Sequence record: MK047718.1
Direction: 5' to 3' (one strand)
Source of the DNA: Escherichia phage p000y
DNA length: 64,000 nt
Shown: positions 4,269-26,440 of the stretch, piece by piece
Numbering within the stretch: position 1 is the first letter of the stretch
Layout of the letters: the number at the start of each line of letters is the position of its first letter
The notes under the pieces: model-generated
Databases searched by the model: none
The model's input: only the letters and a program-made list of their open reading frames with translations
Told to the model about the DNA's origin: nothing
Position numbers and translations under genes: made by a program

Positions 4269-7200
4269 CTAATTTAACCTGTGGTGGATTCACGGGGTCT
4301 CTTGGATTTCCTACATTATCGATTAACCGTTGTTCAACCAAATCTCTAAATCTAGAGAATGTTGTTCCGGACGCATCAAATAATGGGCTCATCAGTTTAC
4401 GTCGTTCCGATGGAAGTTGACCTTGAAATATGGAGTTATTGTTTTCAGCGTTATAATCTTCAGGCAATGGATAATCTTGTCCAGCCATAGGGCCTATTTC
4501 ATATATCGCTTTACCTGTAATAGGGTCAAACTCAACATTTCCTTGTGGGTCTAATTTAGCCACTCGGTCTGCATATTTAGTCGGTAATCCAGAATCCCAC
4601 TTATAGTTTTTGTATTTATTAATAATAGTTTCAACATGTTTAAGTGTTAATCCGGTGTTAATAAACATTGTGAGAAGGGTAATTGCGATAAATCCAAATC
4701 CAACCGGATGAACAAAACGTAATACGTCTGATTTCCAACGAGATGATGGAAGTTTAGATTTAATCTTCATTACGTAGTATGCTCTACCACGATTTATGTA
4801 ATCGATGTTGTTCTGAGAAAGCTCTTTACCTTTAATACCACGAACAATTTCACCTTCAAAACCCGGGAGTCTTTCAGCTTTAACTTCCTGTCCTTGGATT
4901 AAACGACCTAAGAGGTTGTGAATTGTTACAGTCCATTGTAATTTACCTTTAGAGTAACTTCTCTCGATATACGTCACATTACAACGTCCTGTCGCGGTGT
5001 ATATGGTTTGTCCGACCAAATCTTCTGTCAACGAATCAGATTCAATGATGATATCATATTCGGTCCCGGAACTAGATTCAATTTCAATTTCAACATCTTC
5101 GTTATAAAGCACTTTAAACAAGAATTTATATGATGCTTCAGTTCCTTTAGTTGAATAGAAGTCATAACTTCTTGATTCAAAGAAACGAGACACTAAGTCG
5201 CGTTTTTCGGCGTTTAAGTAAATGTTTCGTTTATAAATCTCAGACCATAAATATTCCCACGCATGTTCTTCTCGCGGATATTGATTTTTAATAAGATTTA
5301 AAAGGTTGTTATAATGGGTCCCATAACCGTCAGAAAGATACTGAATATAAGCCTCGCAGAATGCTTCGAAGTTTGTATTATCTAAAAGATAAGACTCCGG
5401 CATCATTGTAGTGAGCAATGGTCGTAAATCTGGGTCTGCAATACCGTCCTCTTCTACAGGAGTCCATGTGGTATCTTTTTCTTGGTTTTGTAATGATGCT
5501 GTTAAGAATATATTAGTAGGCTTCCAAATTATAGAAACATTATCTCTAACACGATAACTAAAATCATAATAAGAAATAATCTCACCCGATGCTTTATAGA
5601 AAATCATGCCGGACGCATATTTTTTAAATCCGGTGAAATCTACGTTAGGCATCACTATTGTACAGTCACCGTCCTTCCAATATTCATGAACTTCACGGTC
5701 TAAAGAACTAAGTGGACGATTCTCAATAACTTTAGTGTAAAGTAAATCAGAATAAATTACAACGGCCTTGTCTGAGTTATTAATCCAACATCGAGTACCA
5801 GACTTTCTAGAATAACTAAAGAATGGCTCAGCATAGTATTCCATCGGTTGAGGAGTGAACGATTCCCATTGAGAGTCTTCAGTTGAAATAAATGCCATCA
5901 TATGATAATGTTTATCAGCCAACCATTCGCGAGGATACTCATATTTAACAGCACCGATTAAACCGTACTTGATTTGTGTTTTTGGGTCATCAACAATATC
6001 CGATTCTAGAAATTTAAAATTACTAGATGAAATAGATAACTCAACACCATCAGTAGACATACTGGTGTACCCAGGTTCAATACGACGGCGTTCTTCTTCA
6101 GTATTACCAAACACACGTTTAAATGTGCCAGCATCATGGTCTAGAACGTAAACGCCCTTATCAGCAGAATCAACAATAGGAGTGGTCCTCGGGTCGTCAT
6201 TAAGATTAACAACTTCGCCGATAATCAGTGCAAATATTTTACCGCCAACAGAATCCATTTTATAGCAAACTGCCTTAGGGTTACCTGTGATGTTAAATGT
6301 TTCTTGTTCAAACAAACGTTCGGAATATGTCGGAGATAACGGGTCTGAATCAATAGGGGCATTACTAGTTTTAATAAAACGAACTTTATCTCGAGCAGCA
6401 ACGTATACATAATCGTCGTTGCAAACGATAGCTTCTGCAATACGTGATACGTTAGCAGGTAATGATGCGTAGTTACCAAATATTTCTACATCAAATCCTA
6501 AATTTAACTGGTCACCAATTTTAGCAAATGTTATATCTTGAGAACTAAATCTCACATCATCAGCAGACCAACGAACGTCAGTTGATTTACGGCCGTAAAA
6601 TAATTTATCATACCCAAGAACATACGTGGTATAACCTGTCTGGTAATACACTGTTCTTGATACAGGGTACCCTACACGGTCATTAAACAATTTAACCGAT
6701 TTCCAGGTTTGTCCCTTATCATTAGAGACTTTAACCACAGGCTGATACCGTTCAAACAAATAAAGAATTCCTTCAGATTCCATCAAATAAACACGGTTTA
6801 TATCATGACACACCTGTTGAATCGAACCTTGAATTTCATGATACTCATTTTCGCCAATAATGAAATTTTTAATAGATGAAATATCCGCATAAGCAGGGCT
6901 AAATTGGAACGATTCATTCATTAGAGCTGCCATTATAGTGTCGTTATTAAAATCGACATAAGCCGTGTTGTTATTTGTAAATTTTTCTCTAATAAAAGTG
7001 TTAGCCAATTGCATTTCAATCATATGTTGAAATGTATACGCGTTAGTCTGAAATGATTCAAATATTTCGGTGTATACCCAATCGGATCTCTCGAAGCCTT
7101 CAGCGGCAGTTGATACACGAATAATATAAGAAGTTAATGGGTCTAAGCTACTTTCGAACCAGTTGCTATTAGGAGTATATCCTAAATTTATCCATCTGTA

Positions 7201-21233: not shown

Positions 21234-21836
21234 ATGCGAAACCAAAATAATGATATTGACTCAATGTTCGAAGAGTTCCGAGATAAGGTAAATCCACCTA
21301 CGTCTTTAGTTGATTCATTACGATATGTTGCAACTGGACGTAAATGGTACTGGTCGTCTTCTTATGAGACTACTGAGAAAACGGCTAGCCATAGCAGAAA
21401 ATCTTTATTAGCCCCAGGTATTATGATTCATGATATCGGAGCTATTGCTAAACTAGTTGCAGACCATGATATTAGATTCACTGATTTCGTTGCTCCTACG
21501 TGGTCTGTTTGTTGTTTAAACACTGAATGGGAATATATCAGCGAACGCTCTGAAGATTATTATGGTTTTAGAGATAAGCTTTTAAGGTCTAACATGTTTT
21601 ATATCGATACTGAAGTTCTAGTCGATAATAAAAAATATTACTTTACGTTAATCATCGATTCCGAAACTATGTATGAAGGCAAGCCTTTGCTTAAAAGAGT
21701 TGATGCTTTAAGTGCTATTGATGCGCTTTATGAAACTATGGTTGTTAGTCCTAATTTCACTAACAATTTAATCCTTGAGCAATTTATTATGGAATGTAGA
21801 GAATATGTCAAAGCCAACCCTATACATGCCAAGTAA
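21234..21836 (+). CDS. hypothetical protein ending in FIMECR motif
   Basis: ATG 21234 with AAGGAG SD (track ORF begins at TTG 21213). Confidence 0.65.
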   Translation: MRNQNNDIDSMFEEFRDKVNPPTSLVDSLRYVATGRKWYWSSSYETTEKTASHSRKSLLAPGIMIHDIGAIAKLVADHDIRFTDFVAPTWSVCCLNTEWEYISERSEDYYGFRDKLLRSNMFYIDTEVLVDNKKYYFTLIIDSETMYEGKPLLKRVDALSAIDALYETMVVSPNFTNNLILEQFIMECREYVKANPIHAK

Positions 21837-22200
21837 GCCCTGGGCGTATGAATACAAGCGTAAATTAATCCCAAATGAAGTACTATTTGGCCCTATTTTA
21901 GCTTTAGCATTTTTAATCTTTATGATTATAGGAGCTGTTTTAGATTCTAGTGAAGTTATATCGTCTGATGCAGCATTTTCATTAATGTTCGTCGCACCAC
22001 TTATTGTACCGTTTTTATTAATGCCTATTAATTGGGTAGGATATTGGCACCAAGGCCGTCATCACAGAGCCCGATTAAGAGAATGGAAAGTTCAGTGCGC
22101 AAAAGCCCAAGCTCGGTATGATGAAGCTGTTAAAAAGTATGAATATGAAGAAGCTATGGAATTCGTTAAGGAAATAAGATGCAAAAGCCTCAACTCTTAA
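21805..22200 (+). CDS. membrane protein, hypothetical
   Basis: Hydrophobic segments; start uncertain (21805 or 21826), overlaps upstream gene. Confidence 0.5.
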   Translation: MSKPTLYMPSKPWAYEYKRKLIPNEVLFGPILALAFLIFMIIGAVLDSSEVISSDAAFSLMFVAPLIVPFLLMPINWVGYWHQGRHHRARLREWKVQCAKAQARYDEAVKKYEYEEAMEFVKEIRCKSLNS

Positions 22201-22538
22201 CCGTATGGCCTTCTCTTGGTGAGAACATTCTAATTTTTATTATGAGTATTGGCATGGGATTTGCCTTTGGATTAGTTGGATTTCTTATTGACGGCGTTGT
22301 GTTAGGATTTATAGGGAACACTGGTGGATTCACAGACCAATGGCAGGACTTACGGTATACCCAAGCCTTTGCATCCATCGCATCATTTTGTACTGTAGTC
22401 TATTTTTACTACGATTTTATAAACCACAACAAGAAAAATAAAAAGGTTTACGCTTCTCAAATGATTAGTTATAATGAACTCCTAGCTAGACGTGAAAATG
22501 AAACAATAGAAAACTTTATTAAGGAATGTAGAAAATGA
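22179..22538 (+). CDS. membrane protein with C-terminal FIKECR motif
   Basis: 119-aa ORF, two hydrophobic helices. Confidence 0.6.
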   Translation: MQKPQLLTVWPSLGENILIFIMSIGMGFAFGLVGFLIDGVVLGFIGNTGGFTDQWQDLRYTQAFASIASFCTVVYFYYDFINHNKKNKKVYASQMISYNELLARRENETIENFIKECRK

Positions 22539-22840
22539 GTAAGATTATTGAAATTAAAGTACCAGAGTTTAATGATGCCAAATCCGCTTCAGATGCAATT
22601 TATAAACTTCTGAATCAAGCTGAACGTATCGAAGAAGAAGCAACAAAGATCGCAGACCAATATGCAGTATCGTTTTCTGTAGGTGATTATGGTAGCGGTC
22701 GTACTTATTATCCTAAGGGTGAAATCGTATCCCAGTGGATGAAAGATGAAATTGAAAATAATGGCGGCGATGTTAAGCGTGAAGGTAATGGATACGTTAT
22801 TACTGAAGGTGCTTGGGTTTCGTCTTCTGCGTTGTGCTAA
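22535..22840 (+). CDS. tandem paralog 1 of 3, C-terminal WVSSSALC
   Basis: 101-aa ORF; shares C-terminal motif and junction sequence with the next two genes. Confidence 0.65.
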   Translation: MSKIIEIKVPEFNDAKSASDAIYKLLNQAERIEEEATKIADQYAVSFSVGDYGSGRTYYPKGEIVSQWMKDEIENNGGDVKREGNGYVITEGAWVSSSALC

Positions 22841-22849
22841 GGAATCATT

Positions 22850-23122
22850 ATGTCTAAAGAACAAACCGAACTGGCTGAAGCTGTAGCAAAAATCTATGCA
22901 GCTATTGAGGCTGCCAAAGAAATTGCTGATAAACAAAACACAACATTCAACTTGTACCCAGCTTATGGTATGGGTGGAACCTATCATTCACCCGGACATC
23001 TTAAAGCCGATCTTGAACGTTGTACAAAAAACGGCTATGCTGAATGGGCTGACGTTTACCAATACGACTACAACCTGAGCCTCGAAACCGGTGGTTGGGT
23101 CGCATCTTCTCACACTTGCTAA
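22850..23122 (+). CDS. tandem paralog 2 of 3, C-terminal WVASSHTC
   Basis: 90-aa ORF. Confidence 0.65.
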   Translation: MSKEQTELAEAVAKIYAAIEAAKEIADKQNTTFNLYPAYGMGGTYHSPGHLKADLERCTKNGYAEWADVYQYDYNLSLETGGWVASSHTC

Positions 23123-23131
23123 GGAAACAAT

Positions 23132-23329
23132 ATGTCTCGTGAATTAGATTGTGCTGTACGTACGGCAGTAGCTGCTCTGGAAAACCTGTTCCAAATTGCA
23201 ACAGAAGAACGCGAAGAAGTTACATTATGGATTGAAGATAACGCAGGTCTGAATCTCCAGGACGCGATCTCATTATCCCACAATAGTATTACTGTTCAAG
23301 GCTGGGTATCATCTAGTTATTCTTGCTAA
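23132..23329 (+). CDS. tandem paralog 3 of 3, C-terminal WVSSSYSC
   Basis: 65-aa ORF. Confidence 0.6.
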   Translation: MSRELDCAVRTAVAALENLFQIATEEREEVTLWIEDNAGLNLQDAISLSHNSITVQGWVSSSYSC

Positions 23330-23334
23330 AACAG

Positions 23335-23363
23335 TTTACAACAAGATAGGGCTATGTTATAGT
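23335..23363 (+). promoter_or_regulatory. early promoter cassette (TTTACA, 17 nt, TATAGT)
   Basis: Same cassette type as 16331. Confidence 0.55.
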
Positions 23364-23391
23364 AGTCCTATCAAATTAAATGGAGTCCACA

Positions 23392-23631
23392 ATGATTTAT
23401 TACGAAAGTATCGGAACTGAAGTAGTTGCTAAAACTATTAGTCGTGAAAAGTTTGCAAAGATATTCGATATGCGTTATAAAAAATCTGAACATAAAGGCA
23501 TCCGATTCGAAGATGCGCACTGTACAATTTGCCCTTATAATGAAGACATAAACGGTACAATCGTTCCATTGGTAGAGGCTTCACATGTTGACCTCTGGGA
23601 TGAATATAATATCGCATGTCGTGAAATTTAA
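23392..23631 (+). CDS. hypothetical protein
   Basis: ATG 23392 after GGAG SD (track ORF 23380). Confidence 0.55.
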   Translation: MIYYESIGTEVVAKTISREKFAKIFDMRYKKSEHKGIRFEDAHCTICPYNEDINGTIVPLVEASHVDLWDEYNIACREI

Positions 23632-23659: not shown

Positions 23660-24616
23660 ATGATGTTAGTTATTGGTTCTCGTGCACTTCACTATCACGG
23701 TCTTATTGATTCTAGCGCTATTAAAAATAGTGATTGGGACTTTATTGCGGATCAATGTTCTTGGAATGCATTCAAAAATCAAATGATGGGTGTATATGTT
23801 CACCAAGATAACCCTGATGTCCAAGTTTTCAAATGCTTCCATAATGGACGCGAAACTCATTTTGAAGCATATATTGTTCCGGCAATCACTAATGTCCGTG
23901 AATTAGTCGGTGAACTCACTCCTGAAGATTTCACGTCTTCTTATGACCTTTTAAAATACGCCAAGAAAAATTTGACTAAAGACCGTTTGAACGGGTTTTA
24001 CTGGGCAACTCCCGAGATATGTCTTGCAATTAAGATGTCTCATCGTTTCAAGAAAAATAATCCATTCTTTTTAAAGACTATGAATCATATTCAGTATCTT
24101 CGTGGTAAAGGTGTTACACTGAACGATGAACTTACTGAAATTATGCTGAAACGCCAGAAAGAAACCTTGAATTATGCTCACCCAGTTCTTGACACTTCTA
24201 AAAGTGCGTTCTTTAAAGATGACATCTATACATATGACCATGATACTATTCATGAAGCCATTGCACTAACTGACCAGCCTGCTTATAAGTTTTATATGAA
24301 AGAAGGCTCAGAAGTTATGACATCACGCGAGAAGTTCGAATCATTACCAGAAATGGTTAAATTAGCCGGTGTATATGAAGAAGCTTGTGTATTAGCTCTT
24401 GAACGTTCACAGATTCCTAACGACTTTAAAATCCATCCACGTGATAGTTTTATGATGGCCCTTGAAAAGGTCTGTACATCAATCACATCAGGATGGTTCC
24501 GTGAGTTCGCTTGGGAAAATTATAGCAAAGTAGTAAGTATGTACCAAAGCTTAGGACACGACGATTACGTCAAGCGTTTCAAACAAAACTTTCATATGGT
24601 AAAACCTTTCAAATAA
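23660..24616 (+). CDS. predicted nucleotidyltransferase-fold protein (Pol-beta superfamily motif GS...SDxD)
   Basis: 318 aa; N-terminal VIGSRALHYHG...SDWDF fits the minimal NTase motif hG[GS]x(9-13)Dh[DE]. Confidence 0.55.
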   Translation: MMLVIGSRALHYHGLIDSSAIKNSDWDFIADQCSWNAFKNQMMGVYVHQDNPDVQVFKCFHNGRETHFEAYIVPAITNVRELVGELTPEDFTSSYDLLKYAKKNLTKDRLNGFYWATPEICLAIKMSHRFKKNNPFFLKTMNHIQYLRGKGVTLNDELTEIMLKRQKETLNYAHPVLDTSKSAFFKDDIYTYDHDTIHEAIALTDQPAYKFYMKEGSEVMTSREKFESLPEMVKLAGVYEEACVLALERSQIPNDFKIHPRDSFMMALEKVCTSITSGWFREFAWENYSKVVSMYQSLGHDDYVKRFKQNFHMVKPFK

Positions 24617-24955: not shown

Positions 24956-25261
24956 ATGAAATTAGGCGAAACCAACCGAATTGGTCTTTTAACAATATTT
25001 GCATCACCTTTTTACGCAGCTCTTTCTGTTGCAGTATTACAAAAGGCTTACGATATGGATGGTGTTCCTGGTTTTGTATTCTTATCGCCGTTTTTGCTAT
25101 TCGTTGGAGCATTGTTATTATATGCCACGACTAGTTTCGACCATAATGTCTGGGTTAATTATAAATGTAAATTGTCTGAAGAAGAACATGCAGAAGCTCG
25201 TAAAAAAGCTATTGAATCTACCAATCTAGAAAATTTCATTAAAGAATGTCGAGGAAAATAA
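24956..25261 (+). CDS. membrane protein with C-terminal FIKECR motif
   Basis: 101 aa, two hydrophobic helices, GAGGAG SD. Confidence 0.65.
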   Translation: MKLGETNRIGLLTIFASPFYAALSVAVLQKAYDMDGVPGFVFLSPFLLFVGALLLYATTSFDHNVWVNYKCKLSEEEHAEARKKAIESTNLENFIKECRGK

Positions 25262-25262
25262 T

Positions 25263-25949
25263 ATGAATAGTTCTAAAACTTTTAATAGTCAAGCTCGTGC
25301 AGTTGGTAGTTTTGCACATAACGTACAAAATGACCGAATCAAAAATGAACCAATGTTCTTTAATTGTGATTTGGGTTTTGCTTGGGATAATGGTGGCTCA
25401 ATCACTCGTAGCTTTATTGCCAATCTCCCAATTGATTGGACTAATCAACATGTTGTATTTGATTCTCGGGTTCATATGCTGATGCCTGGTTGGTATCCTG
25501 CTATTCCTGGATACCACCATGACGATGTTCCTCGCCCTGATATTCCAGTTGGTCAACACTTTATTACTGCAGGACAACCTGACTATGACAACCCTCGTTA
25601 CCATTCTGAACATATTCTTGGTCTTGTTAACGCTGACGTGTGTCCTACTCATTTTGCAACAGGAACTGCAGAGTTCAGTCAGATTCCTGATGGCGAACTT
25701 ATCTATCGCCAGTGGCACAAAGAAGTCCTCGAAAAAATTGAAAAAGGTGAACTAGAGAAATGGGAAGCTCCAGATCGTACTCTTCTTCAGTTTGATTGGC
25801 AAACATGGCACACTGGTTCTCGTGCAATTAGTAATGGATGGCGTTGGTTCGGACGTGTATCTCGTAATACAGACCGAGTTAAAAAGATTACCAATGAAAT
25901 TCGTGTCAATGCTCAAGTTTATCTGGAATTCCCTATGGAAGGCTGGTAA
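25263..25949 (+). CDS. hypothetical protein
   Basis: 228-aa ORF. Confidence 0.65.
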   Translation: MNSSKTFNSQARAVGSFAHNVQNDRIKNEPMFFNCDLGFAWDNGGSITRSFIANLPIDWTNQHVVFDSRVHMLMPGWYPAIPGYHHDDVPRPDIPVGQHFITAGQPDYDNPRYHSEHILGLVNADVCPTHFATGTAEFSQIPDGELIYRQWHKEVLEKIEKGELEKWEAPDRTLLQFDWQTWHTGSRAISNGWRWFGRVSRNTDRVKKITNEIRVNAQVYLEFPMEGW

Positions 25950-26440
25950 TGATTAACAAAACATATTGGTCTAATATAGACGATGGCAATGAAGGTATTT
26001 CATACTATTCAGTAGATTGGACAGGATGTCCATCCTACTTAGTGAAACATATTTGCCAAGAATTTAAAATCGACCAGCCAGCAGGTATTATCGTGAACAG
26101 ATACATTAATGGATATCAACCTATCGATGAAGTAATACGAACAACTCAAGCTGAGCTTGAAAAGTTTTTCAATAAGTGCCAATGGATAACAGGATGGATT
26201 ATATTTGTACCGTCGGTATGGTTTTTTAGTACTAAGGTGAGTTCTTTCGGTTTTGTTGATATTATTGCTATCTTATTAGCATCTACTATCGTAAGTATTA
26301 TTGGTGGTATTATTGGTGGAGGTACTGTAGGCATCATTATTAATCTTGTTAAAAGTAGTTTACAGGAACGTAAAGACAAGATAAAGGCCAAGAATAATGA
26401 AGTTGAACGTTTTATTACCGAATGCAGGAATTTGAGATGA
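25949..26440 (+). CDS. membrane protein with C-terminal FITECR motif
   Basis: 163 aa, hydrophobic core with G-rich helix. Confidence 0.65.
   Translation: MINKTYWSNIDDGNEGISYYSVDWTGCPSYLVKHICQEFKIDQPAGIIVNRYINGYQPIDEVIRTTQAELEKFFNKCQWITGWIIFVPSVWFFSTKVSSFGFVDIIAILLASTIVSIIGGIIGGGTVGIIINLVKSSLQERKDKIKAKNNEVERFITECRNLR

Follow-up and report, generated by a model that had tools for sequence, protein, structure and literature searches.

Three small genes in the DNA of Escherichia phage p000y (record MK047718.1), termed p1, p2 and p3 in the following, encode proteins that share a short C-terminal tail, and the family to which they belong is linked across unrelated phage lineages to the gene of a predicted nucleotidyltransferase (NTase) with the Pfam domains DUF7277 and DUF7275. 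This linkage suggests that the small proteins and the enzyme form a two-part phage module that was not described before; a full-text literature search for the family and the enzyme with locus tags, DUF and PHROG numbers and descriptive terms returned nothing. Unless a locus is named, positions refer to the window, i.e. the whole stretch of 64,000 nucleotides that was analyzed. A first-pass annotation made from the DNA letters had pointed to the three genes and their common ending. It missed the link to the enzyme, which is the most informative fact.

The region shares 98–99% identity with the genomes of Mosigvirus members such as APCEc01 and JK42, which are RB69-like T4-type coliphages. All three genes lie on the plus strand between homologs of e.3 and e.2, within the e.8–e.1/nudE/lysozyme accessory region. 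The p1 protein (22535–22840; 101 aa, isoelectric point (pI) 4.6) ends with EGAWVSSSALC, p2 (22850–23122; 90 aa, pI 5.0) with TGGWVASSHTC, and p3 (23132–23329; 65 aa, pI 4.2) with VQGWVSSSYSC. The tail motifs proper are located on the same strand at 22814–22837 (W-V-S-S-S-A-L-C), 23096–23119 (W-V-A-S-S-H-T-C) and 23303–23326 (W-V-S-S-S-Y-S-C). Re-derivation from the window reproduced exactly the coordinates, lengths and C-termini given at first pass. The description of the genes as tandem paralogs is borne out as well: p1 and p2 match PHROG 899 (E 1.3e-22 and 5e-19), p3 matches PHROG 4882 (E 7.7e-37), both listed with “unknown function”, and one family hidden Markov model (HMM) picks out exactly these three open reading frames (ORFs) of the window. 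Their bodies share only about 30% identity. In p1 a long N-terminal helix is followed by a central GDYGSGRTYYPKG motif and the terminal GAWVSSSALC, p2 contains a central PAYGMGGTYHSPG motif, and p3 (family HMM E 1e-7) represents a short subfamily without the YGxGG motif. Pfam, NCBIfam and PADLOC searches with p1–p3 gave sub-threshold noise only.

The junctions between p1 and p2 (TGCTAAGGAATCATTATGTCT) and between p2 and p3 (TGCTAAGGAAACAATATGTCT) are nearly identical, as had been noticed before, and follow the pattern TGC TAA GGA AnC AnT ATG TCT. Each one is made of the Cys codon, a TAA stop that overlaps an AAGGA Shine-Dalgarno sequence, a gap of 9 nt, and the ATG TCT of a Met-Ser start. Since these elements account for the likeness of the junctions, a special explanation is unnecessary. 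Translational coupling across p1–p2–p3 is probable from this arrangement.

Linkage of the small proteins to the enzyme

The enzyme gene (23660–24616, plus strand) starts 330 nt after the end of p3 and encodes 318 aa, with DUF7277 at residues 2–101 and DUF7275 at residues 120–305. A Pol-beta signature is invariant in an alignment of 40 sequences (G6 S7 ... D25 x D27 ... E69, then K125/H128/K139), and the helical C-terminal half is extremely conserved (YDHDxIH, PAY, GVYEExCVLALER and KVCTSITSGWFRE). Judged from these residues and the predicted structure, the product is apparently an active Pol-beta-type NTase with intact catalytic residues. Its predicted structure most resembles those of MenT toxins and of O-nucleotidyltransferases of the ANT/Lnu type; the comparison gave values of 10.0 for the MenT1 toxin, 8.6 for ANT(2''), 8.4 for TglT/MenT3, 7.7 for MenT4, 7.6 for TM1012, 7.4 for a JHP933-like NTase (4ok0) and 7.1 for LnuA. 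The nearest solved folds transfer a nucleoside monophosphate (NMP) to hydroxyls, namely the tRNA 3'-OH (MenT1/3/4), an aminoglycoside OH (ANT(2'')) or a lincosamide OH (LnuA). The enzyme matched neither Pfam DUF1814 nor the PADLOC models. RlaP, the RNA-ligase-associated Pol-beta NTase (PMC7824862), was considered as an assignment and rejected, Pfam giving only DUF7275 and DUF7277.

We counted tail ORFs, i.e. ORFs of at least 40 aa ending in the tail, in 80 IMG/VR loci that were found with two patterns taken from the enzyme alignment (CVLALER[SC] and KVCTSITS). At least one tail ORF occurs in 78 out of the 80 loci, which sample one enzyme clade, and the number of copies per locus ranges from one to six. 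On the strand of the enzyme there are 227 tail ORFs compared to 8 on the opposite strand, and 223 out of the 227 end no more than 3 kb upstream of the enzyme start. Elsewhere, among approximately 2,900 other ORFs within 8 kb on either side, about four were found. If the ORFs of the 80 loci are clustered, the tail family is the sole gene family that is shared with the enzyme across lineages. A Rosetta-stone search for fusions of small protein and enzyme found none.

The same arrangement was observed in individual phages. Phage phAPEC8, a member of the Stephanstirmvirinae and thus outside the T4-like phages, encodes three tail proteins immediately upstream of an enzyme homolog of 43% identity. 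Tail proteins also lie upstream of the enzyme in Pseudomonas phage phiPsa374 (four), Acinetobacter phage AM101 (two) and Aeromonas phage CC2 (two), and downstream of it in Stenotrophomonas phage Ps15 (two) and Xanthomonas X1 (four). The linkage was found again in independently chosen GenBank genomes of Moon-, Dhaka-, Teguna-, Kanagawa-, Ceceduo- and Lazarusvirus, in the jumbo phages RsoM2USA and fENko-Kae01, and in a cyanobacterial contig from a metagenome-assembled genome (MAG).

GenBank contains the enzyme in 734 phage records, and a search of the genomes of 185,579 prokaryotic species yielded it in one contig only, a MAG contig which carries two tail ORFs. All remaining occurrences are phage genomes or viral contigs. 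The carriers of the module are lytic phages and include T4-type members infecting Escherichia, Klebsiella, Enterobacter, Aeromonas and Acinetobacter, as well as phAPEC8-like, Otago-like and jumbo phages. In the whole T4 genome tblastn (E<=0.01) detected no enzyme homolog and the HMM (E<=10) no member of the family; tail-like ORFs are absent too, and e.3 is directly followed by e.2. The T4 gene nrdC.11, annotated as “nucleotidyltransferase” (L105, T4 50001–66000, at 5435–6445; N-terminus YGTSTPESDVDF), was tried as the T4 counterpart and rejected, since it has no BLAST similarity to the enzyme. T4 genetics would miss such a module, and its lack in T4 probably explains why it went unstudied.

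A further argument for the linkage arises from the sequence of the enzyme itself. Enzymes with KVCTSITSGW[FW]R are accompanied by tail proteins. In four distant homologs (KVP40, Vibrio K406, Gordonia Norvs and Streptomyces Wakanda) KVCTSITSGWFR is replaced by K-T-I-T-S-L-T-K and the GS...DxD N-terminus is kept, and the enzyme of DSS3_PM1 has the intermediate KVCTTLCSGWFRD at this position. No tail proteins were found at these five sampled loci of the divergent clade. Because the clade without KVCTSITSGWFR has no tail proteins, the presence of the tail family tracks a specific enzyme motif. In Pseudoalteromonas H101 KVCTSITS is kept, and the upstream ORF ends with EWYESRC. All five divergent loci have another conserved small neighbour with the pattern ...F[RK]xxGWYxSYxGG...EVxP..ITVY (L013, 4890–5360; L014, 4594–4893; L015, 3360–3656; L017, 5217–5609; L101, 4620–4985), which may be the equivalent partner in the tail-less enzyme clade. 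The broader enzyme family seems to travel always with some small partner.

Conservation of the tail and local gene context

The members of the family are small (about 60–150 aa) and strongly acidic, end with G-x-W-x-[S/A/P]-S-S-x(0-3)-Cys, and occur in one to six copies per genome. Their median pI is 4.4 and their net charge −9, compared to a pI of 5.9 and a charge of −1 for the other small ORFs of the same loci. Moonvirus, Dhakavirus, Tegunavirus, Kanagawavirus, Aeromonas phages and others have three to five copies per genome that end with W-x-S-S-S-x-x-C. At least four subfamilies can be distinguished: p1-like (GDYGSGRTYYP), p2-like (PAYGMGGTY), short p3-like, and a “double” type that has DWLSSSCYGE inside the protein and IWxSSSC at its end. 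Some members contain two or three copies of the unit [DN]G-x3-5-W-x-S-S-(S)-C, one protein having three. More than one Cys is found in 63% of the members and a single Cys in 37%. Paralogs of the p1, p2 and p3 type each have orthologs in other genera. When 1.84 billion representative proteins were searched by HMMER with the profile of the family, only 19 matches were obtained. The genuine matches are without exception small phage proteins, and long proteins with multiple hits were discarded as fibronectin type III (FN3) repeat noise. Comparison of the profile to PDB sequences gave nothing meaningful, and a search of BFVD returned uncharacterised family members only.

In the six-frame translation of the window the strict motif W[VILMA][SA]SS..C directly before a stop occurs three times, always at the ends of p1–p3, and 300 shuffles gave a mean of 0.0 and a maximum of 0. 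The codons of the tails differ between p1, p2 and p3: Val is encoded by GTT, GTC and GTA, one Ser position reads TCG, GCA (Ala) and TCA, and another reads TCT, TCT and AGT. Because synonymous codons differ, including TCT versus AGT, and the bodies are so divergent, we conclude that selection acts on the tails at the level of the protein and not of the DNA.

The first-pass annotation had proposed an alignment across related phages, and had made its proposal depend on the motif being kept in the orthologs of close relatives. Alignments of 22 and of 55 family sequences contain W94, S97, (S98) and C101 as the sole invariant columns, and the motif is retained in orthologs and paralogs of at least nine Straboviridae genera and of unrelated phage groups. 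To avoid circularity, an HMM was built from the bodies without the tail columns and run on the fetched loci. It retrieved 81 unique homologs, 80 of which have the tail, and the lone exception looks damaged at its end. A near exception among the close relatives is the p1 ortholog of the RB69 reference (L103, NC_004928, 3735–4041, minus strand), in which a 1-nt insertion breaks the gene into ORF139c and ORF138c and the tail has Pro in place of Ser (WVSSPALC); p2 and p3 of RB69 are intact. This split gene is either a pseudogene of the laboratory strain or a sequencing error.

Structure prediction of the bodies, also proposed at first pass, was carried out for p1 with AlphaFold2 (AF2). The model (predicted local distance difference test, pLDDT, 87.9) is a folded alpha/beta domain in which G-x-W-V-S represents the last beta-strand of the fold (E93–96), so that the tail is partly built into the fold and SSxxC alone makes up a terminal turn. 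Of the idea of a functional tag on a diversifying scaffold, the conserved C-terminal element on diverging bodies stands; a free-floating tag is not what the model predicts. The terminal Cys, which had been named at first pass as a possible site of the function, is invariant, and W, S and S are invariant together with it. As some relatives contain the motif internally (DWLSSSCYGE), a free C-terminal carboxylate is not always required. Within the family zero to three residues separate SS from the Cys.

The genes p1–p3 lie in an early/middle-type promoter context, as far as can be judged from putative promoters. A promoter-like site (TTTACG-N17-TATAAT; 22447–22475, plus strand) matches the consensus inside the e.3-like gene upstream of p1, and in phage SA35RD the equivalent site carries the annotation of a T4 middle (MotA-type) promoter. 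Behind p3 a putative early-type promoter (TTTACA-N17-TATAGT; 23335–23363, plus strand; likewise a consensus match) is overlapped in its −10 box by an 11-bp hairpin (23345–23372, plus strand; dG −16.1 kcal/mol, z −3.96), which is annotated as a terminator in SA35RD. From its sequence this cassette is a candidate boundary between the p1–p3 unit and a downstream transcription unit, and the hairpin/promoter at 23335–23372 resembles the promoter-early stem-loop (PeSL) cassettes of T4-type phages.

Between p3 and the enzyme an ORF of 83 aa follows (23380–23631; PHROG 3723), which has the pattern YKKSx(5-6)RFEDAxC..PY.E, ends with LWDEYNIACREI, and is limited to some Tevenvirinae genera. It was rejected as a degenerate member of the tail family (hhalign probability 0.6%). 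An ORF of 228 aa (25263–25949; PHROG 1843, no Pfam match) lies approximately 0.65 kb past the end and 1.6 kb past the start of the enzyme gene. Its homologs occur 0.9–2.9 kb after the enzyme start in 23 out of the 80 IMG/VR loci, in T4-type lineages only; a phAPEC8 ORF of similar size at this position has no BLAST match to ORFs of the window. We also observed a second paralog family with a C-terminal motif, [E/N]-x-F-I-x-E-C-R, located 1–11 residues before the stop in four flanking plus-strand ORFs (21234–21836, 22179–22538, 24956–25261 and 25949–26440). These are the e.3-like and e.2-like ORFs and two others, mostly predicted membrane proteins. In e.3-like neighbours of JS10, fHe-Yen9-01 and locus L039 the ends are looser (FIKECK, FVTYCR, FIRMCR, FITECR).

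Possible roles of tail and enzyme

We favor the reading that the tail faces the enzyme and that a Ser hydroxyl is nucleotidylylated, which on the basis of sequence and analogy we regard as plausible although somewhat short of probable. The tail would be the part of each small protein that is recognised by the enzyme, with the Trp and the preceding strand as an anchor, and the Ser-Ser hydroxyls, or less likely the Cys thiol, would take the NMP from a nucleoside triphosphate. Each enzyme would serve several diversified clients, which presumably differ in the targets that their bodies bind during infection. The nucleophilic character of the invariant tail residues (Ser, Ser, Cys) is an argument for a substrate-like role, and the presence of one enzyme together with up to six divergent paralogs per genome argues for several substrates rather than one inhibitor. 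That the nearest folds all modify hydroxyls favors Ser as the acceptor. A mechanistic precedent is provided by the minimal NTase MntA, which polyadenylylates its gene neighbour HepT (PMC7641770). The contact between small protein and enzyme, the nucleotidylylation of Ser and any role downstream of it are what we infer from these observations.

Several points weigh against this reading. The conservation of W-V-S may partly serve folding, as these residues form a beta-strand in the model. The variable SS-Cys spacing and the internal motifs do not fit one rigid active-site geometry, and the frameshifted p1 of the RB69 reference indicates that individual paralogs are dispensable in the laboratory. 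In the window itself the hairpin/promoter cassette and the unrelated 83-aa ORF stand between p3 and the enzyme. The loci L039 and L088 of the IMG/VR set contain the enzyme without any tail protein, and the proportion of 78 out of 80 is limited to the enzyme clade that was sampled by the two patterns.

One could go further and propose a new post-translational system of virulent phages, in which the NTase nucleotidylylates the Ser-Ser/Cys tails or cross-links them via nucleotidylylation. This more specific claim, again drawn from sequence and analogy, we hold to be rather unlikely, although a real possibility. If it were true, the products would be nucleotide-tagged effectors or decoys, which might imitate RNA 3' ends or the nucleotides of immune signalling, acting in host takeover or counter-defence.

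The main alternative is suggested by MenAT1. MenT1 is inhibited or regulated by the 68-aa MenA1 (PMC10435456). By analogy the phage enzyme would act on RNA (e.g. on tRNA 3' ends, for host shut-off or for repair and counter-defence) and the small upstream proteins would inhibit or regulate it, binding by the N-terminal helix and/or by the tail as a pseudo-substrate of the active site, and would not be end products. The acidic charge of the small proteins and the frequent tRNA and RNA-repair neighbourhood fit this. We nevertheless consider it rather unlikely. Up to six diversified paralogs per genome are unusual in antitoxins, it is the tail (W, S, S, C) that is invariant and not the helix which MenA1 uses, and the family has no relation in sequence or fold to MenA1 or to COG5340 antitoxins. 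In addition the enzyme lacks the DUF1814 and PADLOC matches mentioned above, and, unlike toxin–antitoxin (TA) systems, the module belongs to lytic phages with virtually no occurrence in cellular genomes.

Two other explanations rank lower than both the favored reading and the MenAT1-like one. According to the first the tail is a structural, oligomerization or metal-binding element independent of the enzyme, with the Cys ligating a metal or bridging subunits and the Trp in the core; the adjacency to the enzyme would then result from co-regulation or from co-transfer of an accessory gene block. The placement of G-x-W-V-S as the last strand of the AF2 model points in this direction, as do the repeats of the Trp–Cys unit in some members, which resemble a repeated module, and the 63% of members with more than one Cys. 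The coupled 9-nt junctions would moreover favor equimolar synthesis, as for a hetero-oligomer. Set against this are the 37% of members with a single Cys and the paralog number of one to six. Hitch-hiking does not readily account for a linkage across unrelated lineages with otherwise unrelated neighbourhoods, or for the co-variation of the tail with a specific enzyme motif. We therefore regard this explanation as improbable.

The second takes the small proteins as covalent carriers or precursors. Their Cys thiol would carry an acyl, sulfur or nucleotide intermediate in the manner of LysW, ThiS or the acyl carrier protein, or an enzyme-activated Ser would turn into dehydroalanine and be captured by the Cys, yielding a lanthionine-like ring at the C-terminus of a folded protein. 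In LysW the conserved C-terminal sequence is EDWGE, and NTase-like enzymes of the CitX/MdcG type load small carrier proteins with a prosthetic group at a Ser. Such a role would agree with the small size, the acidity and the invariant last residue of the proteins beside a phosphotransfer-type enzyme, with the multiple precursor-like paralogs per enzyme, and with a Ser-Ser...Cys layout that suits thioether formation. Yet the loci have no conserved gene for a dehydratase, cyclase, YcaO, radical S-adenosylmethionine (SAM), E1-like or ATP-grasp protein, the AF2 prediction shows folded bodies and not leader peptides, the variable Ser-Cys spacing, which includes zero, misfits a single ring size, and such chemistry is not known for this NTase fold, all of which makes this explanation very doubtful.

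The last one, a DNA-level likeness of gene ends and junctions left by tandem duplication, gene conversion or a recombination cassette, could appeal to the near-identical junctions and to the PeSL-like hairpin/promoter just downstream, but it is effectively refuted by the synonymous differences between the tails, even in the Ser codon family (TCT vs AGT), by bodies of about 30% identity whose paralogs each have orthologs in other genera, and by the conservation of the motif at the protein level in phages of Pseudomonas, Acinetobacter, Xanthomonas, Ralstonia and cyanobacteria.

Provided that the linkage has a function, the small proteins and the enzyme make up a widespread two-component module that is confined to phages. 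It could reveal a new pathway of protein nucleotidylylation or a new regulation of MenT-like enzymes, and both outcomes bear on the manipulation of host translation or immunity by phages. Two Pfam DUFs and a minimum of three PHROGs, which are present in many therapeutic phage candidates, would also acquire a function. The invariant Trp/Ser-Ser/Cys tail provides a precise and cheap experimental handle.

Comparison with known systems

The module follows the same logic as MenAT1 and HEPN-MNT, an NTase with an adjacent small protein. Compared to MenAT1 of M. tuberculosis, it is restricted to phages and has one to six diversified paralogs that are conserved in the C-terminal W-x-S-S-x-x-C and not in the helix, and the phage enzyme has an extra, highly conserved domain of approximately 190 aa (DUF7275). 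Membership in the MenAT/AbiE group was rejected, as the enzyme is not a DUF1814 protein by sequence and the small proteins are of neither the MenA1 nor the COG5340 (AbiEi/MenA3/4) type. The residence of that group in bacterial chromosomes and plasmids is not shared either, given the single MAG contig among the genomes of 185,579 species.

In HEPN-MNT (HepT-MntA, type VII TA) a minimal Pol-beta NTase targets the product of the adjacent gene and (poly)nucleotidylylates one of its hydroxyls (PMC7641770). There the partner is a HEPN RNase with Rx4-6H that is modified on Tyr, whereas the small phage proteins are unrelated to it and have an unmatched fold, and gene order and copy number differ as well. 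Membership was rejected since p1 contains no His at all and p1–p3 have no Pfam match to HEPN. Enzymes of the ANT(2'')/LnuA type comprise 160–180 aa, act on small molecules and, unlike the phage enzyme, have no dedicated protein partner. In the GlnD-PII system a uridylyltransferase/uridylyl-removing enzyme acts on a small protein, and the acceptor of PII is a Tyr in a loop. The conserved site of the phage proteins is instead a C-terminal Ser-Ser/Cys; no sequence relation to GlnD-PII was detected, and an HD-like assignment is weak.

Precursor arrays of ribosomally synthesized and post-translationally modified peptides (RiPPs) likewise have several small paralogs directly upstream of one enzyme and Ser/Cys in a short conserved C-terminus. 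In the phage proteins this pattern is inverted, with a constant “core” and a variable “leader”, and the bodies are folded. A lanthipeptide or other RiPP system was rejected on two grounds: no Lan, YcaO or radical SAM gene was found by Pfam on nine neighbouring ORFs or among the gene families across the 80 loci, a protease and an exporter being absent as well, and a layout of leader and core disagrees with the predicted fold of p1 (pLDDT 87.9) and the constant C-terminal segment. Ubiquitin-like or sulfur-carrier proteins (ThiS/MoaD) were rejected as well, as the beta-grasp fold and the C-terminal Gly-Gly are lacking. What sets the phage module apart from MenAT1 and HEPN-MNT is the lack of DUF1814 and HEPN signatures, the unrelated fold of the small proteins, the restriction to phages, the multiple paralogs and the extra enzyme domain. 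It therefore represents a variant of the theme “nucleotidyltransferase with cognate small protein” that stands outside both systems.

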